From: an uncultured Chloroflexia bacterium
Lineage (GTDB): Bacteria; Chloroflexota; Limnocylindria; Limnocylindrales; CSP1-4
Direction of reading: 5' to 3'
DNA length: 64,000 nucleotides
NCBI GenBank assembly: GCA_963752475.1
Contig: CAVVYR010000008.1
Coordinates: 574,110-638,109 of the forward strand
The notes beneath the pieces were generated by a model, which ran no database searches, was not told the origin of the DNA, and saw nothing but the letters and a program-made list of their open reading frames with translations. Every line of letters starts with the position of its first letter. The first letter of the stretch is position 1. Below are positions 1,485-19,093 of the stretch, in pieces. The position numbers and the translations under genes were made by a program.

Positions 1485-1522
1485 TCGCCAGGCGTACGAT
1501 GTCTGGTCGTCGCCGCCATGGC
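1485..1522 (+). repeat. Left terminal half site of the array (attL-like)
   Basis: TCGCCAGGCGTACG followed by the C-site right half ATGTCTGGTCGTCGCCGCCATGGC; the C-site left half is absent. Confidence 0.75.
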
Positions 1523-1553
1523 TGGGCGGCGCAGCCGAGGCGGCGCGCTGGGA

Positions 1554-2174
1554 CTAGTCAGCTGGTGGCCCGGTGGGCAACGGATACAGCTGGCGGCCCC
1601 CGGTCATGTCCGGGACCGGCTCGTCGGGGAACGACAGCATCTCGGCCTCGAAGATGTGGCCTTCGTATGCCAGGTCCCACGGGCCTTCCGCGTCCGCTGG
1701 GGTCACCCCGTGCAGCAGCGCATAGAGTCCCTCGTAGGCACCCTCACCGGCTAGGACGTAGAAGCTGTACCGCTTGCCGCCGCCGTTGACCCAGCGTCCG
1801 GTGCCACGCCAGCGCCCGTCCTCATCTTCCAGCAAGCTCCGGCTGACCGTGTTCATGGCGCCGTCGAGCACGTCCGACGGCTTCCAGATGAGCGTGTAGT
1901 CGAGCGTGAGCCAGAGGTCGTTCGGGAGTCGTGGGTCGCTCCACTCGACCACCTGGCGCATGAGAGCTGGCCGGCCCGTCCCGACCGTGATCTCATACCC
2001 CCGCACGTCGGAGGGGACGTTCGCTTCGCTGAAGCTGTGGCCGTACACCTCGACCACGGTGCCGGTGACGAACGTTACCGGGGCCGGCACTTCCTGTGCC
2101 GCTGCGGTGGTTGCCAATCCGAAGCACAGCGCCAGGCTACCGAGGAGCGTCAGCGAGGCTCGAGCTGCAGGCAT
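1554..2174 (-). CDS. Secreted 'WSDPRL' family protein (cassette 1)
   Basis: Signal peptide ending AAA-Q; motifs VTFVTGT, EWSDPRLP, GEGAYEGL, YEGHIF; ends PPAD*. Confidence 0.85.
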   Translation of the reverse strand: MPAARASLTLLGSLALCFGLATTAAAQEVPAPVTFVTGTVVEVYGHSFSEANVPSDVRGYEITVGTGRPALMRQVVEWSDPRLPNDLWLTLDYTLIWKPSDVLDGAMNTVSRSLLEDEDGRWRGTGRWVNGGGKRYSFYVLAGEGAYEGLYALLHGVTPADAEGPWDLAYEGHIFEAEMLSFPDEPVPDMTGGRQLYPLPTGPPAD

Positions 2175-2197
2175 TACGCACCTCCAAGTGCCCGCGC

Positions 2198-2270
2198 GCG
2201 GGCCGGGTCCGCCAGTGGCTTGACGCGGTCCAGGCGGCCATGGCTGGGGCCGCGCGTCATCGCCTCCCGC
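2198..2270 (-). ncRNA. c-di-GMP-II-like riboswitch variant (copy 1)
   Basis: Minus strand GCGGGAGGCGATGAC...TGGCCGCCTG...AAGCCACTGGCGGACCCGGCCCGC just upstream of the SD; GCGGG/CCCGC closing stem. Confidence 0.65.
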
Positions 2271-2323
2271 TAACTACGATTCTCTCTCGCGCGTCCATCA
2301 AGGCCGCCTGAGCAGCGTCCGAA

Positions 2324-2369
2324 ATCGCCATGTATAACGGGTCTCGGTCTGATCGTTGCCGCCATGGCG
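2324..2369 (+). repeat. C site
   Basis: ATCGCCATGTATAACGGGTCTCGGTCTGATCGTTGCCGCCATGGCG (divergent copy). Confidence 0.85.
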
Positions 2370-2592
2370 CAGGCAGCCGAGGTGACGATGGGCTAGTCCA
2401 TGGGGTCAGGCTCGGTGGTGACCGGAACCGGAGCCTCTGGGAACGCCAGCATGTCGCCCTCGAAGACGTAGCCCTCATAGGAGACATCGGTCGGGCTTGG
2501 CATCCGCACCCCCGGTCCCCAGGGCACGGCGTGCAATCCCTCGTAGGCACCTTCGCCGGTCAACTCGTAGAAGCTGTACTTGCCGTGGGAGC

Positions 2593-3768
2593 TAGTGCCT
2601 CATGCCGCAATGGCGGGGAGCGAATGATGGACCTCGGCCTTGATGCGCCAGGGCTTGGCTGGGCGGCAGTTCCGGTTGTGCCAGCGGAGGTAGGCATGGA
2701 TGGCCGCACCCTGCTCGTCGTGGCTGGCGTGGTCGCTGCCGTTGAGCGCGAAGCGCCGGAGGGCCTGGAACTGGCACTCGATGAGGTTGAGCCAGCTCGC
2801 GTAGGTGGGCAGGTACACGAGTTCGATGTCGTGCGCGTCGGCCCACTCGCGGAGCTCCTTCTTGAGATGCGGGCTGAAGTTGTCGAGCACCACGATGAGG
2901 TGCTCGTCGAAGCGGGCCCGCAGCGAGCGCAGCAGCTCGCGCACCTCGCGCCAGGTCTTGGTCGCCCGGATGTGGCCGTAGAGCTTGCCGCTCGCGGGAT
3001 CGTAGGCCGCGAGCAGCTGGCGCACGCCCGCGGTGCGCGTGTAGGTGGCCCGGAGGCGGGCCGGGTGCTTGCTCGGATGCCAGCCCGCTCCGAGGCGTGG
3101 CTGCAGGTTCAAGGGGCCGAACTCGTCGAGGCAGAGCACCCGGCTGCCCGCGGGCGGATGGGCGTAGAGGTCGAGCACGCGGTTCTTCTTGGCCTCGAAG
3201 TCCGGATCGGGCGAGGCCTTCGGGGTCTTGTGGTGCAGGAAGCGGATGCCATGCTCACGCAGGATGCGCCGGAGCTGGCTCCCGCTGATGGTCGGCACCA
3301 CTCGCGTCCGGAGCAGGTGGTCGCGCAGCTTGGTCAGACTCCAGTCGGTGAAGGGCTCACCGAGGTCTCGGGGACGGGCGAGAGCCACCTTCACGATGGC
3401 CGCGCGCTGGGCCTCATCGATCCGGCGTGGTCGGCCCCCGCCCTTCCGAGGGTCCAGGGCCGCGAAGCCCCGCTCGTCGAAGGCGTGGATGAGTTCGGCC
3501 ACGTGCGTCGCGCTGGCGCGGTGCAGCCGCGCGATCTCGGGCACGCTCTGGCCCTGGAACGAGGCGAAGAGGAGCATCGCCCGGTGCTGCGTGGTCGGGT
3601 TCGTACTGCGACGAGCGAGCCTGAGCAGGTGCATCGCCTCCCCATCGCTGAGCTCACGGATGAACAACTCGGGCCGGCGGGCCATCTGCACCTCCCTGCG
3701 ACGACGGGCCGAGGGTCGACCCTTGCGACAGTGCGATTACCTACCGGACATTATGAATCGAGGCACTA
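2593..3768 (-). mobile_element. IS630-family insertion sequence
   Basis: TA duplication (2593-94 and 3767-68) in a CTAG context; imperfect TIRs GTGCCTC...AATG / CATT...GAGGCAC. Confidence 0.9.
2600..3691 (-). CDS. IS630-family DDE transposase
   Basis: N-terminal HTH, GGGRPRRI, LCLDEFGP, VVLDNFSPH, LPTYASWLNLIE. Confidence 0.95.
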   Translation of the reverse strand: MQMARRPELFIRELSDGEAMHLLRLARRSTNPTTQHRAMLLFASFQGQSVPEIARLHRASATHVAELIHAFDERGFAALDPRKGGGRPRRIDEAQRAAIVKVALARPRDLGEPFTDWSLTKLRDHLLRTRVVPTISGSQLRRILREHGIRFLHHKTPKASPDPDFEAKKNRVLDLYAHPPAGSRVLCLDEFGPLNLQPRLGAGWHPSKHPARLRATYTRTAGVRQLLAAYDPASGKLYGHIRATKTWREVRELLRSLRARFDEHLIVVLDNFSPHLKKELREWADAHDIELVYLPTYASWLNLIECQFQALRRFALNGSDHASHDEQGAAIHAYLRWHNRNCRPAKPWRIKAEVHHSLPAIAA

Positions 3769-4194
3769 GCGATCAATCGCCCGGTGCCACTCCAACTCCC
3801 GACCTCATCCACCAACAGATGGTTGGTCGCGATGGTGGTCCATCCCCACTCGTCGGCAGGATGGGACACCGACTGGTGGTCCAGGGTGAACCAGTGCTCG
3901 GCGGGGAGTCGTGGGTCGCTCCACTCGACTCGCTGCTCGATGAGGTCCACCCGGCCGCCGCTGGTCACCTCGTAGTCCCCCACGATGGTCGGCGGGTCTG
4001 GCTCGATGTCCTCCCAGTCCCGTGCTTCGGTGTGCACCGTCATGTCCCATGGGAACCCGGTCACGAAGGTGATGGGGCCAGGTCCCTCTGACTGCGCAGC
4101 CGCCGTGATGAGCAGGCTGGCGAGCAGGACAAGAGCGGATGCCCCCGCCAGTACTGTCCGCAATGTACGCATCTCGCACCTCCTGGGTGCATGC

Positions 4195-4269
4195 GCGGGC
4201 CGGGTTCGCCAGTGGCTCGGCGCGACTCAGGCGGCCAACGTACGCGAGTCGGACTTCACGGCCTCCCGC
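4195..4269 (-). ncRNA. c-di-GMP-II-like riboswitch variant (copy 2)
   Basis: Same leader; inner stem CGACTC/GAGTCG is compensatory relative to other copies. Confidence 0.7.
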
Positions 4270-4310
4270 TACCGATGATTCTCTCGCGAGCGTCCATCGG
4301 CAATCCCGAA

Positions 4311-4355
4311 ATCGCCATGAATAGCGGGTTTGGTCTGGTCGTCGCCGCCATGGCA
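4311..4355 (+). repeat. C site
   Basis: ATCGCCATGAATAGCGGGTTTGGTCTGGTCGTCGCCGCCATGGCA. Confidence 0.9.
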
Positions 4356-4381
4356 CAGGCAACCGAGGCGGCCAGAAAGGG

Positions 4382-5263
4382 TTACTCGGCGGGCTTGGCC
4401 TCCGTCGTCCCGTCAACATCCGTCAGCGTGGCGCTCTCCACAACCGCAGGCTCGTCCGATGCGTTTCGGATCACATAGACCGTGTCGCCCGCGAATGAAC
4501 CCGACGTGAGAATGTCGGCATCGGGCGCGATGAACCTGACCGAGTCGGTCAGCGCCCCGTCGACCTCGGATGGGGCAGCGAAGCCGCTCTCCAAGCGACC
4601 CTCTTCAAGCGCCAGGAGGCGCAGCACCCCGGCTTCGTCAGAGTCAAGCACCAGCTGGCCGCCGGGATCGAACGTGATTCGTTCGAGGATGACCGCGACC
4701 GGGGCACTGATCAGCTCGGTCAGGGTCTCCTCGGCCGGGAAGTCCCAGACCAGCAACTGGTAGTCAGCACCCGGAGCAGGCTCCCTCGGTGTCTGCGGCT
4801 CAATGCTGTTGGCGATGCCCACGATGAACGATACGTACGGTTCCGTACCGTCGATCACCCACGAGCCCGAAGCCGCGCCGTCGTAGTACAGCACCACGTC
4901 ACCAGCACCGAGGGCGATGGTGGCCATCGGGTCCGGAGCTCCATCGGAGCCGTCCTCACCCCAGAGGTGTGCCCGCGTGTCCTTCACGACCTGCGCGCTC
5001 CCTTGCTCCACGTACTCGACGTAGGTGTAGCCCGCTGGTTCCTCCGACCCTTCCTCAGCGCTGCTGCTCGGCTCGACCATGACACGCGCGAACCACGTGT
5101 GATCGACATCCGGGGGTATGGCTTCCACAGGGATGACACCGCGGTCGCTCAGGACATCGACGTCGACGCCGGACGTACCTCCTTCTGCCGCGACCGCAGG
5201 CCCGAGACTGAGAACCAGCATCGTGAGAGCGGTGCCCGCGAGGCACTGACGTACGGTACGCAT
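4382..5263 (-). CDS. Secreted protein, probable tandem cupin-like domains (cassette 3)
   Basis: Signal peptide MRTVRQCLAG...; two beta-rich repeats (YVEQGS...LGAGD, ALEEGRL...IRNASDEPA); ends KPAE*. Confidence 0.75.
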   Translation of the reverse strand: MRTVRQCLAGTALTMLVLSLGPAVAAEGGTSGVDVDVLSDRGVIPVEAIPPDVDHTWFARVMVEPSSSAEEGSEEPAGYTYVEYVEQGSAQVVKDTRAHLWGEDGSDGAPDPMATIALGAGDVVLYYDGAASGSWVIDGTEPYVSFIVGIANSIEPQTPREPAPGADYQLLVWDFPAEETLTELISAPVAVILERITFDPGGQLVLDSDEAGVLRLLALEEGRLESGFAAPSEVDGALTDSVRFIAPDADILTSGSFAGDTVYVIRNASDEPAVVESATLTDVDGTTEAKPAE

Positions 5264-5280
5264 GGATCCCCCTTTCCAGC

Positions 5281-5353
5281 GCGGGCCGGGTTCGCCAGTG
5301 GCTCGGCGCGGCTCAGGCGGCCATGGTGTGGGCCGTGCGTCGTCGCCTCCCGC
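5281..5353 (-). ncRNA. c-di-GMP-II-like riboswitch variant (copy 3)
   Basis: Full leader copy upstream of SD AAGGGGG and ATG 5263. Confidence 0.7.
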
Positions 5354-5393
5354 TCAGTTGATTCTCTCGCGGGCGTCCAACGGTTCGCACGAA

Positions 5394-5438
5394 GTCGCCA
5401 TGAATAGCGGGTTATGTCTGGTCGTCGCCGCCATGGCG
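5394..5438 (+). repeat. C site
   Basis: GTCGCCATGAATAGCGGGTTATGTCTGGTCGTCGCCGCCATGGCG. Confidence 0.9.
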
Positions 5439-5474
5439 CCCGTGCGTCCGGCAGCCGAAGGCGGTGCGAGGGGG

Positions 5475-6026
5475 TTACTCGGCAGGCGGCAAGACCCACT
5501 CTGGTGGCTCGGGCCAAGCGCCGGGGATGATGACCCCCTCGACCTCCCAACCACCGGGAGCCGGACGCTGGATTAGCATGGCCGAGAGGCCCTCGTACCC
5601 ATGCTCACCGGTGAAGTAGTTCACGTAGTGGCTGACTCCGGTGCCCGGCGTGAAGCCCTGACCCGCCATGGTCCAGGAACCGCCGTCGTTCGTCAGGCGT
5701 CCGATGAGCGTGCGCACCGTGGCCCCGGAGCCGTAGACGTCATAGTTGGAGTTCGCCTCCAACTCTCCGCTCAACCGCGGGTCGTCGGTCTCCAGGCTCA
5801 ACGTCCAGCCGTAGTTCCGCGTGGACGCGACCATCGGCTGCGGCGAAGTCTCGGTCTGGGCGGACTGGTTCGGGGCGACGGCGCGGATGGTGCCGGTGAC
5901 GACGGCGGGCGCGAGAACATCGGCTTCCGAAGCCGGGTCAGCATCCCGCGCCACGCCGGTGACGCTCGACGGTCCGAGCAGCGCCAGGGCGACGGTCCCC
6001 ACCAAGGACAACCGCAACGTACGCAT
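5475..6026 (-). CDS. Secreted WSDPRL family protein (cassette 4)
   Basis: ATG 6026 MRTLRLSLVG after SD GGGGGA; ETDDPRLSG, GEHGYEGLSA, VEGVIIPG; ends PPAE*. Confidence 0.85.
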   Translation of the reverse strand: MRTLRLSLVGTVALALLGPSSVTGVARDADPASEADVLAPAVVTGTIRAVAPNQSAQTETSPQPMVASTRNYGWTLSLETDDPRLSGELEANSNYDVYGSGATVRTLIGRLTNDGGSWTMAGQGFTPGTGVSHYVNYFTGEHGYEGLSAMLIQRPAPGGWEVEGVIIPGAWPEPPEWVLPPAE

Positions 6027-6044
6027 GACATCCCCCGTTCGTGT

Positions 6045-6117
6045 GCGGGCCGGGTTCGCCAGTGGCTCGGCGCGGTCCAAGGCGGCCATTGCTGGACCGC
6101 GCTTCGAAGCCTCCCGC
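6045..6117 (-). ncRNA. c-di-GMP-II-like riboswitch variant (copy 4)
   Basis: Perfect 10-bp inner stem GCGCGGTCCA/TGGACCGCGC. Confidence 0.7.
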
Positions 6118-6167
6118 TATGTAGATTCTCTCGCCGACGTCCATCGGCTCCTCGGCCGTGCTCCAGA

Positions 6168-6212
6168 ATCGCCATGCATAGCGGGTCATGCCTGGTGGTC
6201 GCCGCCATGGCG
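6168..6212 (+). repeat. C site
   Basis: ATCGCCATGCATAGCGGGTCATGCCTGGTGGTCGCCGCCATGGCG. Confidence 0.85.
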
Positions 6213-6238
6213 CAGGCAGCTGGGGTGGGGGAATGGGG

Positions 6239-6838
6239 TCAGCCGAAGAAGACCGCGTCGATCAGCGCGAGCAGTGCGAACAGGGCGACGGGCAGCACCA
6301 CGATTCCCAGCGCGATCAGGATCAGGAGTTCTCGGTCCGGGCGGCGAATCCCCTTGCTGCGGCGTCGGATGATGCTCCCGACCCTGTCGCCGAAGGCGGC
6401 GCCGATCGAGACCGTCACGAGCGCAGCGACGATGCCGTCGGGGATGTCGTCCTCGGGAAAGCCGAGTCGGCCACCGATACCGGTACTGAGGGCGAATCCG
6501 ACGAGGGCTGCCGCCGCCATGGCGCCGATGAGACCGACCACACCGAGGCGTCGTCGTGGGGACGGCGAGTGCCCGATGATTCCCGCCGGGACGACCGCGA
6601 TGAGGATGCAGGCTGCCCAGAGGGTGATGGTCTCAGCAGACAGACCCCGGTAGCACCCCCAGCACTCCGGGTCGTCGTATCCGGGTTCGTAGAACTCCTG
6701 GATCATGTCCACCCACGCCGCTCCGAGCACGAGGCCGAGGACGAGGCAGAGTGCCGCTGCTACCGCGATGGCCGCGATGATTCGCCCGACGCCCGCAATC
6801 GGATCGACGCTGGTCCCACCCACGGGACGAGGTGCCAT
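6239..6838 (-). CDS. Multi-pass membrane protein (cassette 5)
   Basis: ATG 6838 with SD GGAGGGG; about 5 hydrophobic segments; CWGC in the first loop. Confidence 0.7.
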   Translation of the reverse strand: MAPRPVGGTSVDPIAGVGRIIAAIAVAAALCLVLGLVLGAAWVDMIQEFYEPGYDDPECWGCYRGLSAETITLWAACILIAVVPAGIIGHSPSPRRRLGVVGLIGAMAAAALVGFALSTGIGGRLGFPEDDIPDGIVAALVTVSIGAAFGDRVGSIIRRRSKGIRRPDRELLILIALGIVVLPVALFALLALIDAVFFG

Positions 6839-6981
6839 GTCTGTCGCCCCTCCATCCACCGATCCGCCAATCCCGATCGTCGCCGGTGTCAGCGTCGGGT
6901 CAAGCAAGGTGCAGCCGTGCTACGTCTCGTAGCCTCCCGCTACCTACAATTCTCTCGCGGGCGTCCATCAGCCGACCCTGA

Positions 6982-7026
6982 ATCGCCATGAATAGCGGGT
7001 TTGGTCTGGTCATCTCCGCCATGGCG
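6982..7026 (+). repeat. C site
   Basis: ATCGCCATGAATAGCGGGTTTGGTCTGGTCATCTCCGCCATGGCG; only the 5' part of the leader (6914-6970) accompanies it. Confidence 0.85.
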
Positions 7027-7209: not shown

Positions 7210-7824
7210 CTAGCCGCCCAGCTGGTACCTGCCCCGCTCCAGCTCCTGGACGTCGGGGCAGAAGTCGCCGCCCTCCTGCCCTTCGGTGGAGGCGATGCCC
7301 ACGAAGTACAGATCGTCCGGGTCGCCCACCAGCTTGCGATCGACGGTCAGCGTCAGGATCGTTCCCTCGACCTCGACGTCGACGACGCCCCAGAACACCG
7401 GGTCGCCCTCGGTCAGCGTCGCGTCGAACAGCGGGGCACCGGACACGGCCTCCTGCTCGAGCGTGGCTCCATGGACGACGAGGACGTGGGTGATGTCATC
7501 GGGGAAGACCGCCGCCGGATCGGCCGACAGGCCGACCCACAGCTCATCCGTCGACATCGTCTCGACGTCATACGAGAGCGGTGGCTCCGCGGCGAACTCG
7601 AAGGTGAAGCTGACGAGGGATTGCCAGGGTTCAGCGATGCTGCAGGACAAGAAGTCGGGCCCTGCGCCGCCAGGGACGTCGCCGACGGGGTCCTCGTAAA
7701 CCGCCAGCGGGACGATCGGCGCGTCGGTCGGCTCCGGCTCGACCTCGGCGGCAGCCACCCCGGTCGCGCTCGCCAGCACGAGCGCAGCGGCGGCCGTCAG
7801 GATCCTCGATATCAGGGTCATCAT
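7210..7824 (-). CDS. Secreted acidic beta-rich protein (cassette 6)
   Basis: Signal peptide ...GVAAA; EDPVGDVPGG motif; two Cys. Confidence 0.8.
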   Translation of the reverse strand: MMTLISRILTAAAALVLASATGVAAAEVEPEPTDAPIVPLAVYEDPVGDVPGGAGPDFLSCSIAEPWQSLVSFTFEFAAEPPLSYDVETMSTDELWVGLSADPAAVFPDDITHVLVVHGATLEQEAVSGAPLFDATLTEGDPVFWGVVDVEVEGTILTLTVDRKLVGDPDDLYFVGIASTEGQEGGDFCPDVQELERGRYQLGG

Positions 7825-7838: not shown

Positions 7839-7905
7839 TTCCGCAAGTGGCGTGGCGCGGTCTGGGGCGACCGTGGTCGACGGGCCGTGCGTCATCGCCT
7901 CCCGC
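7839..7905 (-). ncRNA. Degenerate copy of the riboswitch-like leader
   Basis: 5' half intact (GCGGGAGGCGATGACGCACGGCCC); 3' closing strand lost. Confidence 0.45.
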
Positions 7906-7956
7906 TACACCCAATTCTCTCGCGGGCGTCCATCAACCACCCTTGAACAGCACGGA

Positions 7957-8001
7957 ATCGCCATGAATAGCGGGTTTGGTCTGGTCGTCGCCGCCATGAC
8001 G
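7957..8001 (+). repeat. C site
   Basis: ATCGCCATGAATAGCGGGTTTGGTCTGGTCGTCGCCGCCATGACG. Confidence 0.9.
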
Positions 8002-8027
8002 CAGGCAGCCGAGGCGGCGCGCTGGGA

Positions 8028-8933: not shown

Positions 8934-8950
8934 GCCATCTCCCTTCGTCA

Positions 8951-9022
8951 GCGGGCCGGGTTCGCCAGTCGCTGGGCGTGGCCTTGCGACCAGTGCTGGG
9001 ACTGCGCGTCAGAGCCTCCCGC
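8951..9022 (-). ncRNA. c-di-GMP-II-like riboswitch variant (copy 5, diverged)
   Basis: Both ends conserved (GCGGGAGGC...ACTGGCGAACCCGGCCCGC); inner stem diverged. Confidence 0.55.
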
Positions 9023-11555: not shown

Positions 11556-11581
11556 CGGGCAGCCGAGGCGGCGCGATGGGG

Positions 11582-12133: not shown

Positions 12134-12265
12134 GGGCAGTCTCCCTGCCCCCCGTGGTGGACGCGTCAAACCAAGCCCCCTCGCGTCCTCACCACATAGA
12201 GGTCGCCAGACCCTCCAAGCGTTCCATCTTCTTGCGCCGCGGGCAGCCGAGGCGGCGCGATGGGG

Positions 12266-12799
12266 TTACTCGGCGAGCGGCACGGGCACTTCGGGCGCCG
12301 GTGGCGGTTCACCCTCGAAGATGACACCGTCGAACACGGTCTGGCCCTCCTCGACGACATGGGCCACGACACTCCAGCCGTCGTACGCACCCTCGCCTCG
12401 GAGCACACTGGTCACCGGCCAGGGGCGCTGGCGCCCGCTCGCGCGATACCAGGTGTTCGGCTCTTCCTGCCACGCTCCCTCGTCGTTCTCGACCCGCATC
12501 GTCCCGTTCCAGAGGTTGAACCCCCCGGGGTCCGAGTGCTGGTCCCGGTTCGCGGCCCACGTGTACGTGCCCGAGAAGCGCGGGTCGCTGGACTCGATGA
12601 CGACGCCCGTCTCGATGACACCTCGGTACTCGACCAAGTCGTCGCCGAAGACGAACGTTCCCGGCTCGACGACCGTGTCGACGGTGGCCCTGGCCTGGAA
12701 CTCGGTGACTGTCGGCTCCTCGGCTGTGGTCACTCCCGTTCCGACGACCGCCAGCATGAGCACAGACACCGCAGCCGCGAACGGCCTGATGGCGCGCAT
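12266..12799 (-). CDS. Secreted WSDPRL family protein (cassette 11)
   Basis: MRAIRPFAAAV...; ESSDPRFSG, GEGAYDGW, FDGVIFEG; ends PLAE*. Confidence 0.85.
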   Translation of the reverse strand: MRAIRPFAAAVSVLMLAVVGTGVTTAEEPTVTEFQARATVDTVVEPGTFVFGDDLVEYRGVIETGVVIESSDPRFSGTYTWAANRDQHSDPGGFNLWNGTMRVENDEGAWQEEPNTWYRASGRQRPWPVTSVLRGEGAYDGWSVVAHVVEEGQTVFDGVIFEGEPPPAPEVPVPLAE

Positions 12800-12815
12800 G
12801 ACATCCTCCTCATCC

Positions 12816-12889
12816 GCGGGCCGGGTTCGCCAGTGGCTCGGCGCGGTCCAGGCGGCCCTGGTGGTAGGCCGTGCGTCGCAGCCTCCCGC
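12816..12889 (-). ncRNA. c-di-GMP-II-like riboswitch variant (copy 6)
   Basis: Full leader copy upstream of SD GAGGAGG. Confidence 0.7.
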
Positions 12890-12945
12890 TAGGTCCATTG
12901 TCTCGCGGGTGTCCATGGGCAGGCAGCCGAGGCGGCGCGATGGGC

Positions 12946-13851
12946 TTACTGGAGGAGCTCCATCACGGTCTCGATCGTGAGGTCGCCCGGCGTGATGTGG
13001 CCACCGGCGAACTCCACCAGCTCGACGTCGTACCCGGCTTCGGCGAGCACGGCCTCGAACGCGGCTGAGTTCTCCGGCGATACTGTCGAGTCATCCTCCC
13101 CGTGGACCAGCCGTACCCGCAGCTCAGGATGCACCCCGACCGCGCCGTAGAGCATCTCCCACAGCTCGGGTTCATGCTCCATCAGGAGGTCGCGGCCGTA
13201 CCTGCCCTCGTAGCCCACGAAGGCGTCGTAGGCGCCCGCGACGCCCATGAAGCCATCGACACGGGTCGAGGCGTCGCTGGCCGTGCACTCGAACTGGGAT
13301 GGCGGACCACCTGCGGACTCGGCGTACTCGTCCCACACGCGGTCGAAGTCCTCTCCGACGAGCGCGACATGTGCCGGCGGTCCGCCATCCAGCGACCACC
13401 CGGTCAACACCAGCGGCGCCGTCTCGCTGCCGTACTCCGAGCCACGGGCGAAGCGCACGGCGCAGGCCACGGCCTCCACGGCCGCGCGGACGACCGTCGG
13501 GTCCGCATGGAGCACGACCTCCGACCACTGGAGCGGGGGCGAGCCGGTCACGAAGACGGACACACCCTGCTCGGCCAGTGCCTTCGAATTCACCGCCGAC
13601 CCGCCTACGCTGACGACCATGGGTGCATCCTCGCTCTCGGCAGTGACGTGGACACGGAGCTTCAGCTCGGTCCCCTCACCATCCGGTGAACTTCCCGTGG
13701 CGTAGACGAGGTCCTTGATGACCGAGACCTCGGCCGGAGAGTCCGATGTCGCACCAGCTGACTCGTCGCCGTCGGTCTGGGCAGCCACGCCGAGCGGCAG
13801 CATGGCCACCGCCACGGCCACCCCCGCCAACACTGCTCGCGGCGTTCGCAT
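12946..13851 (-). CDS. Secreted alpha/beta hydrolase (cassette 12)
   Basis: GWSLDG elbow, HGEDD, GGH; signal peptide MRTPRAVLAG. Confidence 0.85.
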   Translation of the reverse strand: MRTPRAVLAGVAVAVAMLPLGVAAQTDGDESAGATSDSPAEVSVIKDLVYATGSSPDGEGTELKLRVHVTAESEDAPMVVSVGGSAVNSKALAEQGVSVFVTGSPPLQWSEVVLHADPTVVRAAVEAVACAVRFARGSEYGSETAPLVLTGWSLDGGPPAHVALVGEDFDRVWDEYAESAGGPPSQFECTASDASTRVDGFMGVAGAYDAFVGYEGRYGRDLLMEHEPELWEMLYGAVGVHPELRVRLVHGEDDSTVSPENSAAFEAVLAEAGYDVELVEFAGGHITPGDLTIETVMELLQ

Positions 13852-13869
13852 GACACTCCCCCTTCATGT

Positions 13870-13944
13870 GCGGGCCGGGTTCGCCAGTGGCTCAGCGTGG
13901 TCCAGGCGGCCAACGTCGAGGAGCCGCGCGTCAGCGCCTCCCGC
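13870..13944 (-). ncRNA. c-di-GMP-II-like riboswitch variant (copy 7)
   Basis: Full leader copy. Confidence 0.7.
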
Positions 13945-13996
13945 TACTGATGATTCTCTCGCGTGCGTCCACCGGCTCGATGGGCACTCGTCCAGA

Positions 13997-14041
13997 ATCG
14001 CCATGAATAGCGGGTTATGTCTGGTGGTCGTCACCATGGCC
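13997..14041 (+). repeat. C site
   Basis: ATCGCCATGAATAGCGGGTTATGTCTGGTGGTCGTCACCATGGCC. Confidence 0.85.
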
Positions 14042-14123
14042 AATCACGCCGCCGGGCCGTCCGGCCCTTGACCCGCTGAGCGGGGCGCGGAGGATAGGGT
14101 CGCGAGCCAGGAGGGGGAACGTG

Positions 14124-15383
14124 ATGTCCAAGCGAGGCGGGGCCTTGGCGCCGACGCTGCCGCGGATTCTGCTGGCGCTCCTGGCCATGCCCCTGGCGCT
14201 CGCGGCGAGCGCGGGCGCGCCCCACGCCGCCGCTGAGCCCGTGGATGCGATGCCTACGATCACGCTTGTCGAGCAGCGTGTAATCAGAATCGCGGACAGT
14301 CAGTTGCTCTCGCTGTCGCCTGACGGTGGCTCGATCGTCGTCACCCGACCAGCTGGGCCGATGCCAACCGAGCTCTGTATCCACGAGGTGGCGACGCTCG
14401 CCGTGCGCATCTGCGCGGACGTCAGTGACCTCGATGCGGGCCTCTGGCCCGACAGCGTGGTCTGGTCACCCGACAGTGCGTGGCTGGCCTTCGCCGAGCT
14501 GTGGCCCATGTTCTTGGTCGATGGCGACCTGTGGCTCATGGACGCCTCCACTGGTGCGCTCGGCAACTTGCTCGACGATGGCTTCAGCGGCGCCCTGGGG
14601 GAAGCGGCTGCAGGCGAACTCACCTGGAAGGGCGTCATCACGCTGCCGATGTACCCGACGTTCACGCCTGACAGCGCCGCGGTGACGTTCTCGCGGACCA
14701 CGGTCCAGGCCGGCGAGTTCAGCGGTGTTGGGGACATCGCAACGCTCCCCATCACCGGTGGCGATGCGGTCACGCTGGGCGGTTCCGAACGCGAGGAGTT
14801 GGTCGGCGAGTATCGCACCATGCAGTGGGCAGCAGACGGATCCGCCCTCTATGTCTCCCTCGTCGACCAGCAGGCTTCAAGGCTCGGACCTGACAGCGGG
14901 ATCTGGGTGTTCGAGGCTGATGGAAGGCACGCCCGCCAACTCCTGAGCATCACTGGCCGCGACGACTGGCCGACGCGCATCTTGGCGGTGTCCCCGCGTG
15001 GGGAGCGCCTCCTCGTATCGGACCCGAGGGCGGCCGCGGGCGGCGCCCCGCTATGTGCTTGCTCGGTGGTCGATGGCTCGACCGGAGCCGCGGAGCCCAT
15101 CGAGCCGCTGGGATCGGAAGCCCGCCAGTCCACGCCCATCACCGGGGCGATGCTCTCGCCGGATGGGTCGCTGGTGATCACGGTCTCAGGCCATCTCGAG
15201 AAGCAGGTGGCCGTCCGGGAGGTGGCAACGTCGAACGAGACGGTCCTGCTACGGGAGCCGTCTGGGACCGCCCCATCGGACCTCGCGGGCGAGGTCCTGA
15301 CCTGGGCCCAGGACGACACGGTGCTGGTCGATGGAGCCAGACGCGGCCGCGGTACGCTGATCGTCCTCGACCGGGGAAGCTAG
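14124..15383 (+). CDS. Secreted TolB/WD40-like beta-propeller protein (cassette 13, inverted orientation)
   Basis: Repeated SPDG/WSPDS/FTPDS/WAADG blades; signal peptide; SD AGGAGGGGG. Confidence 0.85.
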   Translation: MSKRGGALAPTLPRILLALLAMPLALAASAGAPHAAAEPVDAMPTITLVEQRVIRIADSQLLSLSPDGGSIVVTRPAGPMPTELCIHEVATLAVRICADVSDLDAGLWPDSVVWSPDSAWLAFAELWPMFLVDGDLWLMDASTGALGNLLDDGFSGALGEAAAGELTWKGVITLPMYPTFTPDSAAVTFSRTTVQAGEFSGVGDIATLPITGGDAVTLGGSEREELVGEYRTMQWAADGSALYVSLVDQQASRLGPDSGIWVFEADGRHARQLLSITGRDDWPTRILAVSPRGERLLVSDPRAAAGGAPLCACSVVDGSTGAAEPIEPLGSEARQSTPITGAMLSPDGSLVITVSGHLEKQVAVREVATSNETVLLREPSGTAPSDLAGEVLTWAQDDTVLVDGARRGRGTLIVLDRGS

Positions 15384-15477: not shown

Positions 15478-15522
15478 ATCGCCATGAATAGCGGGTTTGG
15501 TTTGGTCGTCGCCGCCATGGCG
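15478..15522 (+). repeat. C site
   Basis: ATCGCCATGAATAGCGGGTTTGGTTTGGTCGTCGCCGCCATGGCG. Confidence 0.9.
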
Positions 15523-15551
15523 CAGGCCGCCGAGGCGAAGCGATGGGGCTG

Positions 15552-16751
15552 CTACTCGATGGCCGATGCAGCGTCCGGGGTGATCACGTAGGTCTCGATG
15601 CTGTCCCGGGCCAGGCCGAGCGTCTGGAGCTCGGTCCCATCTTCAAGGGTCACGACGTCCCCATCGGATGTGGATGCGGCCCTGACCCACACGTTGCCAT
15701 CAACGTCGATATCGATCTCCTGGACGCACCGGTCCGTCAGGAAGCGACGCCAGGTCGTGCCATCGAAGCGGCCGAGACCGTCGCAGGAGACCAGGTGCGA
15801 GCACATGACCCCGCAGGGCTGCTCGGTCTTGAAGGACGCCCACAGACTGCCATCCGGCCCCAGCACGCCAGGGTTCCACCACGCGGACGTCGTGCCACCG
15901 ACGGGTAGGGGCACCTCGAGTCGCTGCTTGTCGCCGTTCTCTTTCAAGGAGCGGATGACGATGCTCTCGCCGCCGAGCGCCAGGGTCCGGACTGCACCGT
16001 CGCTTCCGATGACGAAACCGTATCCTGGCAACCCTGCCACGGGCATCCAGCCATCGTCGGTGAGGCGGCTCACGGCCGTCTTCCGGCGCAGCCACAGCGC
16101 ACCGTCCGGGGCCACGTCCCACGACCTGATGTTGTTGGCCTTCGGCTTGTCCGCCGGGTGCTTGGGCAGGCGGGTCCAGGAGTCGCCTTCGAGACGCAGG
16201 AATCGACCGCCGCCCGGGCGATCGGTCTCCCTCAAGGCCCACACGGTGCCATCGGGTTGGAGGCGGAAGTCGAGACCCTCGTACACGTTGCCCGTGCGCT
16301 TGAGCCGCGGCCGCCAAGCGGTACCGTCATGCGAGTAGAGGGTCCAGCGGACGGGCCGGCCTTCCACGGTCCCGTCATGGGCGACGATCCACGGCGTGCC
16401 ATCCGATCCGACCTGGACCGGCCACGGGACGTTCTCCCGCGTCCGCCCGTCCGGGTAGGGAAGCTCCTGCTCTGCACCCAACTCGAGGAGATCCCGGTCC
16501 CCCATGAGCCACACGCTGCCATCAAGGCCGATGGCCAACTCATCGTTCAGGCCGCTCCTCCCGATCGATCCCGCAAGCTCTCGAACACCGCCCCCAAGGA
16601 CCCGTAGGACACCCGGTTCGACCTCCTCGGTCACCAGGCCCGCGAGCAGCCCGCCGGTACCGCTCTGGCCGCTGGCCTCTTGCCCCGCTGCGGCAGTGCT
16701 CGAGGTCAGGACCAAGGCAAGCGTCAACGCCGTCGCGATACGTGCACGCAT
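15552..16751 (-). CDS. Secreted beta-propeller repeat protein (cassette 14)
   Basis: MRARIATALTLAL signal; repeated xxDGxxW blades (GLDGSVW, APDGALW, GPDGSLW, FDGTTW). Confidence 0.85.
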   Translation of the reverse strand: MRARIATALTLALVLTSSTAAAGQEASGQSGTGGLLAGLVTEEVEPGVLRVLGGGVRELAGSIGRSGLNDELAIGLDGSVWLMGDRDLLELGAEQELPYPDGRTRENVPWPVQVGSDGTPWIVAHDGTVEGRPVRWTLYSHDGTAWRPRLKRTGNVYEGLDFRLQPDGTVWALRETDRPGGGRFLRLEGDSWTRLPKHPADKPKANNIRSWDVAPDGALWLRRKTAVSRLTDDGWMPVAGLPGYGFVIGSDGAVRTLALGGESIVIRSLKENGDKQRLEVPLPVGGTTSAWWNPGVLGPDGSLWASFKTEQPCGVMCSHLVSCDGLGRFDGTTWRRFLTDRCVQEIDIDVDGNVWVRAASTSDGDVVTLEDGTELQTLGLARDSIETYVITPDAASAIE

Positions 16752-16768
16752 GACGTCCCCTCTTGCAT

Positions 16769-16844
16769 GCGGGCCGGGTTCGCCAGTGGCTCGGCGCGGT
16801 CCAAGGCGGCCAACGTACACAGGCCGCGTCTCGTAGCCTCCCGC
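16769..16844 (-). ncRNA. c-di-GMP-II-like riboswitch variant (copy 8)
   Basis: Full leader copy. Confidence 0.65.
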
Positions 16845-16884
16845 TACCTACGATTCTCTCGTGGGCGTCGACCGCGATCACAGA

Positions 16885-16929
16885 TCCGCCATGAATGGCG
16901 GGTTTGGTCTGGTCGTCGCCGCCATGGCG
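16885..16929 (+). repeat. C site
   Basis: TCCGCCATGAATGGCGGGTTTGGTCTGGTCGTCGCCGCCATGGCG. Confidence 0.9.
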
Positions 16930-17053
16930 CCGGCAGGCGAAGCGGCGCATGGGAACCCCGCCCCCGGTCCTCCACGCCGGGGGCGGGGCCTACAGGGGGG
17001 TGCCTGGTTGACAAGTCCTGAGCGCCGCAGGCAGCCGAATCGGCGCGATGGGG

Positions 17054-17623
17054 TCACTCGGCAGGCGGTCCTGGCAGCGGTGGCAGTCCGCTCTCGATGA
17101 TCCAGCCTTCATACTGCTCGTCCCACGGTCCGTCGGGGTCGTGGTCGGGCGCACCTCGCAGCAGGGCGTGCATGTCCTCGTAGGCCCCGTCACCCTCCAG
17201 AACGTAGTAGCTGTAGTGCCGCTCCGGGTCGGGACCGTAGCCCTGCTTGATGGCCCGCCCGGTGCCATGCCAGCGGCCCTCAGAGCCGTCCAGCAGGACG
17301 TTCATCTCGGTGACCATCACGAAGTAGTCCTCGATGGCCTCCACGTCGACCTCCTCGCCCTCGAGTTCGGGCGGCACGTCACCATAGAGGTACCAGGCAC
17401 CCTCGACCTCGAGCGTCGGCGGCAGGCGCGGGTCGCTCCACTCCACGGTCTGCTCCCACGTGGCGCGGCCCTCGTCCTCGGTCGCGGAGTCATTGGTGTC
17501 ACCGACCGCCGTGCCGGTGACGAAGACGGCGCGGACCGCCTCCTTGTTCATCTGCGCGGCGACCGCGACCGTGGAACCGAAGACCAGCGCCACGGCGACG
17601 GCGACCACCCATGGCGTACGCAT
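17054..17623 (-). CDS. Secreted WSDPRL family protein (cassette 15)
   Basis: MRTPWVVAVA...; VEWSDPRLP, GDGAYEDM, YEGWII; ends PPAE*. Confidence 0.85.
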   Translation of the reverse strand: MRTPWVVAVAVALVFGSTVAVAAQMNKEAVRAVFVTGTAVGDTNDSATEDEGRATWEQTVEWSDPRLPPTLEVEGAWYLYGDVPPELEGEEVDVEAIEDYFVMVTEMNVLLDGSEGRWHGTGRAIKQGYGPDPERHYSYYVLEGDGAYEDMHALLRGAPDHDPDGPWDEQYEGWIIESGLPPLPGPPAE

Positions 17624-17641
17624 GACATCCCCCTTCCTTCT

Positions 17642-17715
17642 GCGGGCCGGGTCCGCCAGTGGCTCGGCGCGGTCCAAGCGGCCATGGTGGTGGGCCGTGC
17701 GTCATCGCCTCCCGC
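17642..17715 (-). ncRNA. c-di-GMP-II-like riboswitch variant (copy 9)
   Basis: GCGGGAGGCGATGACGCACGGCCC...TGGCCGCTTGGACCGCGCCGAGCCACTGGCGGACCCGGCCCGC. Confidence 0.7.
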
Positions 17716-17789
17716 TACGTCAGATTCTCCACCTGGCGGCAATCAAGGTCTCCTGACGAGCCGAAGGCAGCCCCGGCGGCGCGATGGGG

Positions 17790-18914
17790 TCACTCAGGGA
17801 ACGTCTGCATCCCTTCGGTCGTGACCGACTCCGGCTGGGCCGGGAACACCATCGGGTCGGTCTCGAAGATGTAGCCCTCGTACGAGTGGTCGAGTGGTCC
17901 GCTGGCATCTGCACCCGGAGTCATACGCAACACGGCCCAGAGTCCGTCGTAGGCGCCCTCGCCGGTCAGTTCGTAGAGGCTGTAGCGGTGGTCGAGACCC
18001 TCGACCGCTCGACCGGTACCCCGCCAACTTCCCTCAGGGCCTTCCAGCAGGTTGCTGGTCGTGACGGCCATCGCGCCCTCCGGAGGCCCCTGCGCCTCTC
18101 GCGGGTCGAGGATGAAGGCGAGGTTCATGTTCATCCAGTGCTGCGATGGCAGGCGCGGGTCGCTCCATTCGATGACTTGCTCGATGACCCCGTAACTCTC
18201 AGCGCCGACCAACCAGCCCCCCACCTCGTGGGGTGGTCCTTCGACGATGGTGTTCGCCCCCGGGTGGTCGTACTGCTCGACCACGGTCCCGGTGACGAAG
18301 GTGACGGGAGCCGGTTCCTCGTCCTGCTCGGCCAGAGTCGCGGACAGAGGCAGCTCGATGGGGTCAGGCATCGGCGGCACCTCGCTCTCGAAGACGTAGC
18401 CGTCGTAGATGCTCGTGACGTGGCCGTCAGCATCGATGACCGGGTTGCCGCCAGCATCCACCACGAGCGACCCTTCGAGCATCGCCCAGAGACCTTCGTA
18501 CGCACCGCTGCCGGTGAGGACATACAGCCCGACCGACGACTCCGGGTCCACGAGCGAGTACTCCGTCCCGGCCCAGTCACCCTCCTCGCCGACCAGCCGG
18601 ACGGCGACGGCGAATGCTCCGACAGCGCCGTCTTCGAGTTCGTGCCAGTTGGCGTTGGTGTCGTACAAGAACCGCGACGGCAGACGCGGGTCACTCCACT
18701 CGACGGTGCGCTCGGTCAGCACGCCGCGCGAGTAGTGCACGTCACCGTCCTCCCACTCTACGGGTTCCGAAGTCATGGACGTGCTCAGCTGTGTGCCGGT
18801 GACGTGGGTCGCAGACGGCGCTTCGCCATCGTCCTGAGCCGTGACGAGCACGGCCAGACCGCCGACCAAGGCGAGCACGACCATCCCGGACAGGGTATGC
18901 AGCAACGTTCGCAT
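17790..18914 (-). CDS. Secreted protein with two tandem WSDPRL domains (cassette 16)
   Basis: EWSDPRLP, GxGAY(E/D)GLWA and Y(D/E)GY(V/I)FE each occur twice. Confidence 0.9.
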   Translation of the reverse strand: MRTLLHTLSGMVVLALVGGLAVLVTAQDDGEAPSATHVTGTQLSTSMTSEPVEWEDGDVHYSRGVLTERTVEWSDPRLPSRFLYDTNANWHELEDGAVGAFAVAVRLVGEEGDWAGTEYSLVDPESSVGLYVLTGSGAYEGLWAMLEGSLVVDAGGNPVIDADGHVTSIYDGYVFESEVPPMPDPIELPLSATLAEQDEEPAPVTFVTGTVVEQYDHPGANTIVEGPPHEVGGWLVGAESYGVIEQVIEWSDPRLPSQHWMNMNLAFILDPREAQGPPEGAMAVTTSNLLEGPEGSWRGTGRAVEGLDHRYSLYELTGEGAYDGLWAVLRMTPGADASGPLDHSYEGYIFETDPMVFPAQPESVTTEGMQTFPE

Positions 18915-18931
18915 GAGGTCCCCTCGCTTGA

Positions 18932-19006
18932 GCGGGTCGGGTTCGCCAGTGGCTCGGCGCGGTCCGGGCGGCCATGATCGAGGAGTCGCGCTTCATCGCT
19001 TCCCGC
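18932..19006 (-). ncRNA. c-di-GMP-II-like riboswitch variant (copy 10)
   Basis: GCGGGAAGCGATGAAGC...GAGCCACTGGCGAACCCGACCCGC. Confidence 0.7.
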
Positions 19007-19057
19007 AACACCGATTCTCTCGCGGACGTCCAACCGCTCGAAGTCGGCTCGACGGGA

Positions 19058-19093
19058 ATCACCATGAATAGCGGGTTATGTCTGGTCGTCGCC
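19058..19093 (+). repeat. Right terminal C site, truncated after the core (attR-like)
   Basis: ATCACCATGAATAGCGGGTTATGTCTGGTCGTCGCC, then unrelated CCTGAGGG instead of GCCATGGCG. Confidence 0.8.

Follow-up and report, generated by a model that had tools for sequence, protein, structure and literature searches.

An array of 16 genes in the genome of an uncultured, Limnocylindrales-type soil/sediment member of the Chloroflexota is punctuated by copies of a sequence of about 47 nucleotides (nt), here termed the C element, which we tentatively read, at somewhat less than even confidence, as a DNA element that is bound by a protein and coupled to promoters, in an island that is modular, polar and prone to recombination. 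The array spans positions 1485-19101 of the final 64 kb of contig CAVVYR010000008.1 (contig C8 of assembly GCA_963752475.1, here G000; 4.25 Mb, 89% complete; G+C content 67-70%), and this stretch of 64,000 nt (forward-strand positions 574,110 to 638,109) is referred to below as the window. Fourteen of the genes lie on the minus strand and two (g08 and g13) on the plus strand. An earlier interpretation made from the letters of the window alone (the sequence-only reading) had proposed an integron-like cassette array of secreted proteins, with a riboswitch-like leader per cassette and a recombinase acting in trans. The array has the look of a regulated gene island of a new kind, whose content changes fast, and not of a classical integron.

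Anatomy and conservation of the C element

In a typical minus-strand unit C reads GCCATGGCGGCGACGACCAGACCAAACCCGCTATTCATGGCGAT. All 13 co-oriented copies proposed by the sequence-only reading are present on the plus strand at the proposed starts (Table 1), and a direct-repeat search of the window recovers the repeat families that it had named. A genome-wide pattern search finds 12 window copies within nine or fewer substitutions of the reference copy at 4311, the copy at 2324 carrying a 1-nt insertion, and two more copies elsewhere in the assembly (C19:130335 and C29:239530). Twelve of the 14 copies matched by the search sit in one array, and the genome-wide scatter of an ordinary repetitive extragenic palindrome (REP), which had been named as grounds for abandoning a cassette view, is not the case. 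The genes adjoining isolated C sites (a GAF protein, DUF4397, SnoaL, rhodanese and a weak HTH_32 fragment) include no clear regulator.

Alignment of 77 distinct copies from 8 genomes showed that the edges of C are sharp, with 1.3-2.0 bits inside the element and background reached within 2-3 nt outside it on both sides. Copies from different species differ by 0-3 mismatches in 38 nt, whereas the array proteins are only 30-78% identical, and C is better conserved than either the array genes or the aptamers that lead them. The orientation of C is constant whatever the direction of the neighbouring genes, all copies of any array being co-oriented, with one copy per gene boundary. Among 78 sites classified with crude gene calls, a left-hand 5′ gene end is paired with a right-hand 3′ end at 18, and a left-hand 3′ end with a right-hand 5′ end at 7; convergent gene ends flank 15 sites and divergent starts 13; at the remaining 25 the neighbour is more than 400 nt away or absent.

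No hairpin or dyad was found in C, single-stranded DNA folds of the two strands giving z = -0.09 and -0.11 (folding z-scores for C range between -0.1 and -1.0), and no RYYYAAC...GTTRRRY frame of attC R and L boxes is visible in it by eye, in agreement with the earlier statement that the sites are not attC. The core exists in a TGG and an ATG variant (the latter in 33 of 93 copies), which show no association with either flank. C was also considered as a coding sequence; no peptide can be encoded, whether on the plus strand (MNSGFGLVVAAM...) or the minus strand, in view of the 1-nt insertion at 2324 and of common variants with an in-frame TGA (GGGTGATG...).

A further candidate, a Xer/dif site in which TTATGTCTGGT was likened to a XerD arm, failed against the dif of the genus. 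The candidate genus dif (ACTTCCGATAA-N6-TTATGTAACAY) is conserved and single-copy in 32 of 49 genomes and lies here at G000:C7:606488-606515; C has only TTATGT in common with it, in a TTATGT subset of the ATG-variant copies, with agreement at 5 of 11 XerC arm positions.

Riboswitch leaders, putative promoter modules and terminator-like stem-loops

The structured leaders of the minus-strand genes are variant aptamers of the Rfam families c-di-GMP-II-GCG (RF03170) and c-di-GMP-II-GAG (RF03169). Nine score above the Rfam gathering score (47.4-62.4 bits) and are full length (model positions 1-85 or 1-86), one falls below it and one is a fragment, and the aptamer 3′ end lies 8-15 nt ahead of a GGGGGA-type Shine-Dalgarno (SD) sequence and an ATG. 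The riboswitch-like leaders of the sequence-only reading can now be placed in a family, and one leader per cassette was too generous, about 10 of the 16 genes being aptamer-led: g05 and g09 have a promoter box with a truncated aptamer, and g08, g10 and g13 have no aptamer. Of the second-messenger regulation proposed for these units, the riboswitch family stands and the second-messenger part was not established; to our knowledge no ligand has been assigned to these variants. In the whole genome there are 35-36 aptamer matches, with clusters also on contigs C1, C7, C14, C29, C31 and C32, and most have no adjoining C site.

Upstream of the aptamers stands a box, TGGACGCCCGCGAGAGAATC, which in minus-strand unit order reads ATGGACGCCCGCGAGAGAATC. 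Box and aptamer leaders are 70-86% identical while heading unrelated genes (g03, g07, g12, g14 and the F1 family described below). Thirteen box copies occur directly upstream of aptamers on other contigs with no C, the box ending about 7 nt before P1. Because the box accompanies aptamers genome-wide without C, it is read as the putative promoter of the riboswitch unit, with GAGAAT or GACAAT as its -10, and not as part of C. A scan with the sigma-70 consensus returned no promoter-like site, and five U-tract terminator-like sites (4.0 expected), none of them at the modules, so that conservation and position are the only grounds for the promoter assignments made here. The first 30 or so residues of otherwise unrelated proteins (MRTLRL.L.G...; genes at 4382-5263, 5475-6029, 8028-8933 and 17790-18914) are 50-60% identical, and the common 5′ module thus seems to continue past the start codon, as far as the signal peptide. 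Elsewhere in the genome, aptamer units at C7:512036 and C7:514838 have identical 170-nt upstream regions, which indicates a recent tandem duplication of about 2.8 kb with no C site involved, and the aptamer clusters on C14 and C31 have upstream sequence in common.

Clustering of the right flanks of C revealed a second module, E, beside 36 of 94 copies, or 38 of 93 when called by pattern. It consists of a GC hairpin (GGGCCGTCCGGCCC) followed by TTGACC-N16-GAGGAT, a short leader, an SD sequence and a start codon, and is a candidate promoter for genes on the C-sense strand. A third, D (CCCCATCGCGCCGCCTCGGCTGCCTGC), is a GC stem-loop directly after the stop codon. Without C the D hairpin is self-contained (GCGCCGC-11 nt-GCGGCGC); with C its 3′ arm is the right end of C, and all 25 C-linked copies fold in this way. 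Two D copies without C have the compensatory pair CCACC/GGTGG. D, E and the box with its aptamer are each also found without C in this genome.

The order of a minus-strand unit proposed by the sequence-only reading is borne out, namely stop codon, D, C, a non-conserved spacer, box, about 7 nt, an 85-nt structured leader, a GGGGGA SD sequence and ATG. The window array holds 11 boxes and one E module, and the proposal that the units are self-expressing is likewise supported, as each would have its own box or E promoter.

Coupling of C to putative promoters

At least one promoter module stands beside 69 of 93 distinct C sites, with a box on the left of 41, E on the right of 38 and both at 10. The gap between C and box in the 41 pairs is 11-15 nt in 13, 23-25 nt in 27 and 80 nt in 1, the two main classes sitting one helical turn apart while spacer identity is merely about 0.5. 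Measured to the -35 of E, the 38 C-E pairs are bimodal as well, with 17-21 nt in 13, 27-31 nt in 22, 24 nt in 2 and 50 nt in 1. Decay of C also follows its surroundings: mismatches in the left third of C average about 0.76 per site with a box on that side and about 1.82 without one (weighted means), the central third is conserved in every context, and decay is greatest at the 10 of 93 sites without any module (6.0 mismatches, compared with 3.6-4.8). To lie in fixed phase in the presumably untranscribed gap that separates a terminator-like hairpin from one or two promoters is the mark of a regulatory site bound by protein.

On the model that we favour, the island would be a set of 16 separately expressed secreted-protein genes assembled from five reusable intergenic modules, namely box with aptamer, E, D, C and C′ (a variant of C marking the array start). 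The box would fire into the aptamer, followed by SD and ATG, and serve the minus-strand genes, E would serve the plus-strand genes, and D would act as a terminator-like stem-loop after the stop codon. C would occupy a stretch that is not transcribed, after one unit's terminator and before the next promoter or promoters, as a double-stranded site for a sequence-specific protein acting on the promoters on either side; its right end would double as the 3′ arm of the D hairpin, and it would form no attC-like recombination hairpin. Turnover of the island would proceed through duplication, recombination between repeated modules (C being the longest near-perfect repeat) and ordinary deletions, with no dedicated integrase. 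The modules and their order, spacing, distribution and conservation are observed; that a protein binds C, that the promoters are active and how the arrays grow are inferences.

Distribution of C and turnover of the arrays

All 20 stretches found to contain the C core come from metagenome-assembled genomes recorded as uncultured Chloroflexia, Chloroflexota or Candidatus Limnocylindrales. Of the 49 genomes of the genus 18 have it, each in two or three arrays holding as many as 27 copies; a few single hits at 3 mismatches may be chance, and a reversed-pattern control gave no match in the 49 genomes. The aptamer is found in 46 of the 49 and is expanded to 10-36 copies in about half, and C is found in aptamer-rich genomes only. 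Expansion of the riboswitch regulon does not need C, because G052 (93% complete, 25 aptamers), G050 (23) and G058 (18) are aptamer-rich without it.

Arrays at syntenic loci differ almost wholly in unit content. The window array and that of G054:C7 have flank, C′ and D in common and just two units, at about 50% amino acid identity. A genus-wide BLAST search with the array found no close or strain-level relative, the best single units being g06 (93%), g01 (84%) and g08 (83%), and metagenome contigs searched with g08 gave relatives at no more than 43% amino acid identity (58% over one short fragment), none of them strain-level. The reads of four runs (one RNA) were represented by Logan contigs, which are broken at repeats and in which the listed joints are repeat cross-mapping. 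In four genomes, G021, G005, G054 (contig C10) and G053 (contig C3), dif is 25-70 kb away from a C array, which has a constant relative orientation and points its C′ end away from dif; if so, the arrays would be terminus-proximal and their aptamer-led genes head-on to replication.

Recent exchange was traced in two cases. g06 is 93% identical to a G054 gene outside any array, the homology extending from about 6 nt before the ATG to the stop codon and ending 130 and 184 nt from the nearest C sites. In G054 (L050, G054:C1:119158-119779) the g06 homologue lies directly behind the apparent C-terminus of a paralogue, as judged by eye, which suggests that it is half of a tandem pair without riboswitch or C. 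The second case is a duplication between two arrays of G054 with co-linear segments 98-99% identical. Its inner differences are deletions ending in an aptamer 5′ end, a D loop and an E promoter, and its outer ends fall in C-type sites; at the left end, on contig C17, a second C′ copy that arrived with the duplication is fused after position 28 of a normal C, which is a non-conservative join. The recent exchanges found here do not use C as a conservative crossover point. Comparison of cassettes among relatives, as the sequence-only reading had urged, gave almost entirely different content at syntenic loci and no conservative exchange at C.

The terminal variant C′ and the polarity of the arrays

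The site at 1485, which the sequence-only reading had missed as such, is the distinct variant C′, composed of CGGAATCGCCA + GGCGTACGA + YGTCTGGTCGTCGCCGCCATGGC, in which 9 nt stand in for 14 nt of C. C′ heads the his-linked arrays of G021, G022 and G005 and the arrays of G000, G054:C7 and G053:C2, where the methyltransferase flank is in common with the window (75-77% identity); two chromosomal contexts were verified for an array-first C′, and the sequences to its left are unrelated between loci. At L030, L051 and L026 C′ starts about 10 nt past a GC hairpin that is perfect and ends in a T-rich tail (GACGCGGCACCC...GGGTGCCGCGTC), which looks like the terminator of the flanking gene.

Two groups of observations weigh against reading C as a regulatory site. 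The first concerns C′ and array polarity. Of the 15 arrays with a left end in view, all but G024:C5 have C′ as their leftmost site when read in C orientation, and in G054 each of three separate arrays is headed by it. C decay grows with distance from C′; the within-array Spearman rho averages 0.30, a value that 66 of 5000 permutations within arrays attained (some of the arrays are not independent of one another), and mismatches average 3.51 in the proximal and 5.24 in the distal half. A regulatory site offers no reason for a constant C′ at array starts, and C′, polarity and the near lack of common units at syntenic loci are predicted by an entry-site model, with C′ attI-like and C attC-like, and not derivable from regulation alone. 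C′ and polarity are left unexplained by a protein-bound regulatory C and keep the cassette hypothesis alive.

The second group concerns C itself. Twenty-four of the 93 sites have no adjoining promoter, and the 14 sites with D only are as conserved as the rest (3.93 mismatches), among them two window copies, at 10402 and 15478, that have a single mismatch each. That all 47 nt are nearly invariant between species with 30-78% protein identity is beyond what a typical operator needs. Finally, part of the split into two spacing classes may go back to two ancestral versions of the modules, and descent may contribute to the C-E classes because the long spacers have a semi-conserved CACGCCGCC in common.

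A possible cassette system without a recognised recombinase

The strongest alternative, which we nevertheless consider unlikely, is an integron-like cassette system built of unlike parts, in which C′ would be an attI-like entry site, C an attC-like unit site and the recombinase an unrecognised enzyme encoded elsewhere; units would leave as circles and insert at C′, which would stay first while older units drift outward and decay. Such a system would account for a unique C′ at the head of 14 of 15 arrays, including all three of G054, and for the polar decay. It would also fit one co-oriented C per boundary in all four gene-end settings (18, 15, 13 and 7 of 78), core variants independent of both flanks, syntenic loci with nearly no common units, the outer ends of the G054 duplication (98-99%) in C-type sites, and a C better conserved than genes or aptamer. 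The cassette-like character claimed earlier is retained in co-orientation, variable syntenic content, terminal C′ and polar decay; it lacks a recombinase that tracks C, and a hairpin.

The search for an enzyme was negative. In this genome, 89% complete, there are three Phage_integrase matches, none on the array contig, of which two are XerC/XerD-like and one is a fragment of 143 amino acids; Resolvase and Y1_Tnp gave no match, and neither did Y2_Tnp, for which the control genomes also gave none. One weak Recombinase-domain fragment and seven IS110-family genes are present. Across the genus, tyrosine-recombinase counts do not follow C (G014, with 10 C sites, carries 2 such enzymes), nor do IS110 counts (G053 has 24 C sites and no IS110), and the proposed recombinase in trans finds no candidate among tyrosine, serine, HUH or IS110 enzymes that follows C. 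IS110-family (DEDD) transposase genes do occur in or beside aptamer or C arrays (G000:C31:719-1105, G022:C7:37505-37969, G013:C9:32441-32779 and G055:C5:14409-14846), and these enzymes might target one of the conserved modules. IS21-type elements (IstA-like rve/Mu-transposase with IstB ATPase) stand in or beside C arrays of two other species (Table 1).

Further points against cassette recombination are the C element itself, which has neither dyad arms nor a single-strand hairpin (z -0.1 to -1.0) and is unlike the genus dif; the non-conservative fusion in G054:C17; and the ends of the g06 exchange, well away from C. Promoter phasing and context-dependent decay are not predicted by it, and the same riboswitch-led arrays exist without C, here and in C-free genomes. 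In G054 an F1-type 3′ remnant, read by eye, lies beside C′, so that the first unit is maybe common to G000 and G054; this suggests that the first unit is old and not new, the opposite of newest-first. The extended claim, that the C′/C arrays are a previously unknown gene-capture system with the working of an integron and none of its parts, seems to us unlikely; in it an enzyme of an unrecognised class would recombine a double-stranded, sequence-conserved 47-bp C with the entry site C′ and so move whole self-regulated units (promoter, riboswitch, signal peptide, gene and terminator) into and out of terminus-proximal islands of a Chloroflexota genus.

Other functions for C, or none

C might instead act at the RNA level, transcribed by read-through from the gene before it, as a terminator, insulator or processing signal between the units of a long transcript, with D and C forming a hairpin core, which we hold to be improbable. 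In C-linked copies D pairs with the right end of C in a GC hairpin of 10+3 bp (-20 to -26 kcal/mol), 14 of 25 D-linked sites keep the same 4-nt distance between D and C, and two D copies have compensatory changes. Yet just the right 12 or so nt of C enter the hairpin while all 47 are conserved, E and not D lies on the right of 38 of 93 sites, folding z-scores are not significant, and C lies upstream of the inferred starts of both promoter types and has one orientation regardless of gene direction on either side.

That C has no function of its own, being a repeat spread by tandem duplication and homogenised by gene conversion with C′ as an escaped end copy, is very improbable: arrays do grow by duplication (the identical 170 nt at C7:512036 and C7:514838, the 98-99% segments of G054) and C is optional for riboswitch units, but 0-3 mismatches in 38 nt across species compare with about 50% identity in spacers and 30-78% in proteins, conversion within a genome cannot keep C constant across species, the replaced segment of C′ is the same at unrelated loci and in different species and is therefore not that of a degenerate end copy, and spacing to promoters is constrained. 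Some probability is reserved for explanations other than these four.

Genes of the array and its flanks

Signal peptides and the membrane anchor were judged by eye from translations, and the earlier count of 15 genes with signal peptides among 16 is borne out in that 15 have signal-peptide-like N-termini, g05 carrying a membrane anchor. The description of their folds as largely unrelated was overstated, as 7 of the 16 genes (g01, g02, g04, g10, g11, g15 and g16) form one paralogous family, F1, with the motifs SDPRL and GEGAYEGL, g16 having two tandem F1 domains. Outside F1, g07 is a BD-FAE esterase and g09 has RTX calcium-binding repeats, and no Pfam family could be assigned to the others. F1 has no Pfam match, and a protein-atlas search returned Chloroflexota hypotheticals only. 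Its structure model is an eight-stranded beta-barrel behind a signal peptide (predicted local distance difference test, pLDDT, 79.8), and the best PDB matches of the model are DUF3224 and AbyU-type barrels (E at least 1.1e-3, template modelling (TM) scores 0.39-0.62), a likeness that is a weak lead to its identity. One gene per interval between C sites is usual, as had been said, with the exceptions of 11511-13997 (three genes), 16885-19058 (two) and 2324-4311, where a single gene is split by an insertion sequence (IS). This IS630-type element in g02 is 1190 bp long, has a 99% identical copy at C7:327621-328810 and copies at 79-89% in other species, and is probably active.

The window array is flanked by housekeeping genes (methyltransferase, ribA, short-chain dehydrogenase/reductase and hydrolase), and the his operon flanks arrays in G021, G022 and G005. 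A further aptamer-led gene (389 amino acids, no Pfam family) lies 2.6 kb ahead of the window start (G000:C8:571463, L020:11463-11549), adjoined by a gene for a MarR-family regulator (L020:12739-13362, G000:C8 about 572.7 kb).

Table 1. Features of the array in window coordinates, in positional order; the last line gives elements of other genomes
Feature	Position	Strand	Basis or remark
C′	1485..1522	+	variant terminal site, array left end; C positions 8-21 replaced by GGCGTACGA
D stem-loop, after g01 stop	1527..1553	-	motif, fold
g01, secreted F1 protein	1554..2174	-	SDPRL/GEGAYEGL motifs; modelled 8-strand beta-barrel
c-di-GMP-II-GCG aptamer, g01 leader	2192..2276	-	62.2 bits
Promoter box (putative)	2278..2297	-	TGGACGCCCGCGAGAGAATC, putative -10 GAGAAT about 7 nt before P1
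C site	2324..2368	+	1-nt insertion
IS630-type insertion sequence	2581..3770	-	DDE_3 transposase 2600-3691; splits g02
g02 N-terminal part, F1	3741..4172	-	IS-interrupted; C-terminal remnant about 2400-2550
c-di-GMP-II-GCG aptamer, g02 leader	4189..4275	-	52.6 bits
Promoter box (putative)	4277..4296	-	motif
C site	4311..4354	+	reference copy
D (diverged), after g03 stop	4355..4381	-	motif
g03, secreted	4382..5263	-	no Pfam family
c-di-GMP-II-GCG aptamer, g03 leader	5275..5359	-	61.1 bits
Promoter box (putative)	5360..5379	-	motif
C site	5394..5437	+	pattern search
g04, F1	5475..6029	-	paralogue comparison
c-di-GMP-II-GAG aptamer, g04 leader	6039..6123	-	60.7 bits
Promoter box (putative)	6124..6143	-	motif
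C site	6168..6211	+	pattern search
D (diverged), after g05 stop	6212..6238	-	motif
g05, membrane-anchored	6239..6838	-	no Pfam family
Promoter box (putative), g05 (aptamer truncated)	6948..6967	-	motif
C site	6982..7025	+	pattern search
g06, secreted	7210..7824	-	93% identical, over the open reading frame alone, to non-array gene of G054
Aptamer fragment, g06 leader	7842..7899	-	26.3 bits, E 0.29
Promoter box (putative)	7913..7932	-	motif
C site	7957..8000	+	pattern search
D, after g07 stop	8001..8027	-	motif, fold
g07, secreted BD-FAE / alpha-beta hydrolase esterase	8028..8933	-	Pfam
Sub-threshold aptamer, g07 leader	8945..9027	-	42.7 vs 47.9 bits gathering
C site	9074..9117	+	between divergent g07 and g08
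g08, secreted	9138..10373	+	no Pfam family
C site	10402..10445	+	between convergent ends of g08 and g09; no promoter module adjoining
g09, secreted, RTX calcium-binding repeats	10586..11413	-	Pfam
Promoter box (putative), g09 (aptamer internally deleted)	11468..11487	-	motif
C site	11511..11554	+	pattern search
D, after g10 stop	11555..11581	-	motif, fold
g10, F1	11582..12136	-	paralogue comparison
D, after g11 stop, no C	12239..12265	-	self-contained hairpin GCGCCGC-11 nt-GCGGCGC
g11, F1	12266..12799	-	paralogue comparison
c-di-GMP-II-GAG aptamer, g11 leader	12810..12895	-	47.4 bits
Promoter box (putative) abutting D directly, no C	12896..12915	-	motif
D, after g12 stop, no C	12919..12945	-	motif
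g12, secreted	12946..13851	-	no significant Pfam family
c-di-GMP-II-GCG aptamer, g12 leader	13864..13950	-	62.4 bits
Promoter box (putative)	13952..13971	-	motif
C site	13997..14040	+	box on left, putative E promoter on right
E module	14041..14120	+	GC hairpin GGGCCGTCCGGCCC, TTGACC-N16-GAGGAT, SD, start of g13; putative rightward promoter and leader
g13, secreted, preceded by E module (putative promoter)	14121..15383	+	translation, E pattern
C site	15478..15521	+	convergent ends of g13 and g14; D right, decayed box left
D, after g14 stop	15522..15548	-	motif
g14, secreted	15552..16754	-	no Pfam family
c-di-GMP-II-GAG aptamer, g14 leader	16763..16850	-	57.2 bits
Promoter box (putative)	16852..16871	-	motif
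C site	16885..16928	+	pattern search
D, after g15 stop	17027..17053	-	motif
g15, F1	17054..17626	-	paralogue comparison
c-di-GMP-II-GCG aptamer, g15 leader	17636..17721	-	52.5 bits
D, after g16 stop, no C	17763..17789	-	motif
g16, two tandem F1 domains	17790..18914	-	paralogue comparison
c-di-GMP-II-GCG aptamer, g16 leader	18926..19012	-	60.5 bits
Promoter box (putative)	19013..19032	-	motif
C site	19058..19101	+	last copy; right ~8 nt replaced; adjoins transposase debris
Right border	19102..21090	.	transposase debris: DDE_Tnp_1 fragment in minus frame 18742-20277; weak plus-strand rve_3 fragment
IS21-type elements	L013 (G022:C7) 1546-3953, 14207-16494; L016 (G014:C12) 5705-7698		

Relation to known systems

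Short intergenic modules joined in mosaics, some with promoters or terminators and scattered genome-wide, are familiar from BIME/REP, BOX, Correia, ERIC and REPIN repeats. C differs from these in being held in one to three arrays per genome, with no RAYT/Y1 transposase and no hairpin, and it is neither a REP nor a REPIN. The pdif modules of Acinetobacter plasmids are bounded by short repeated sites and shuffled by host Xer with no dedicated integrase; C copies differ in being all direct repeats, not alternating, and the genus has its own dif. The riboswitch part of the system is known, nine leaders being full-length c-di-GMP-II-GCG or -GAG aptamers above threshold ahead of an SD sequence and start codon; unusual here are their number (about 35 in this genome, 10-36 in some half of the genus's genomes) and their arrangement in arrays with a shared box.

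[quoted passage not shown] They differ in that attC is conserved in structure, whereas C is conserved in sequence and has no hairpin, and in that integron cassettes, according to the same part of that work, rarely contain promoters, whereas the units here would carry their own (PMC4889954). No integron integrase exists anywhere in this genome, let alone next to the array, and C has neither attC palindromes nor, as judged by eye, R and L boxes. C′ resembles the attI-like distinct end site of a co-oriented array by analogy only, and the array is no CALIN, which takes at least two attC sites without integrase, C not being attC by structure. A further likeness is to the reused, putatively mobile promoters described by Nijveen, Matus-Garcia and van Passel in 2012, in which highly similar promoter regions stand ahead of non-homologous genes, as is the case here, and in connection with which Correia, ERIC and REPIN repeats are named (PMC3575422). 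Separable modules, a 47-nt element, a terminal variant and polarity set the present arrays apart and are not described in the available part of that paper (PMC3575422). Our searches of the literature found no work on riboswitches of Limnocylindr- taxa and mention of the c-di-GMP-II GCG and GAG variants in methods only, and searches on integrons, attC and CALIN in Chloroflexi returned general integron works only; as far as these searches reach, the C/C′ architecture is undescribed.

The island offers a clean natural case of modular expression, in which unrelated secreted-protein genes have been given the same exchangeable promoter, riboswitch, signal-peptide start and terminator, to the extent that these modules act as predicted, and stand in rows within islands that are almost wholly different from one sister species to the next. 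It also supplies dozens of natural variants of an orphan riboswitch class with a coherent secreted-protein regulon, dominated by one beta-barrel family, which should help in finding the ligand. C and C′, for their part, may be the footprint of an unknown DNA-binding protein that organises the arrays, or the first sign of an integrase-free cassette system.

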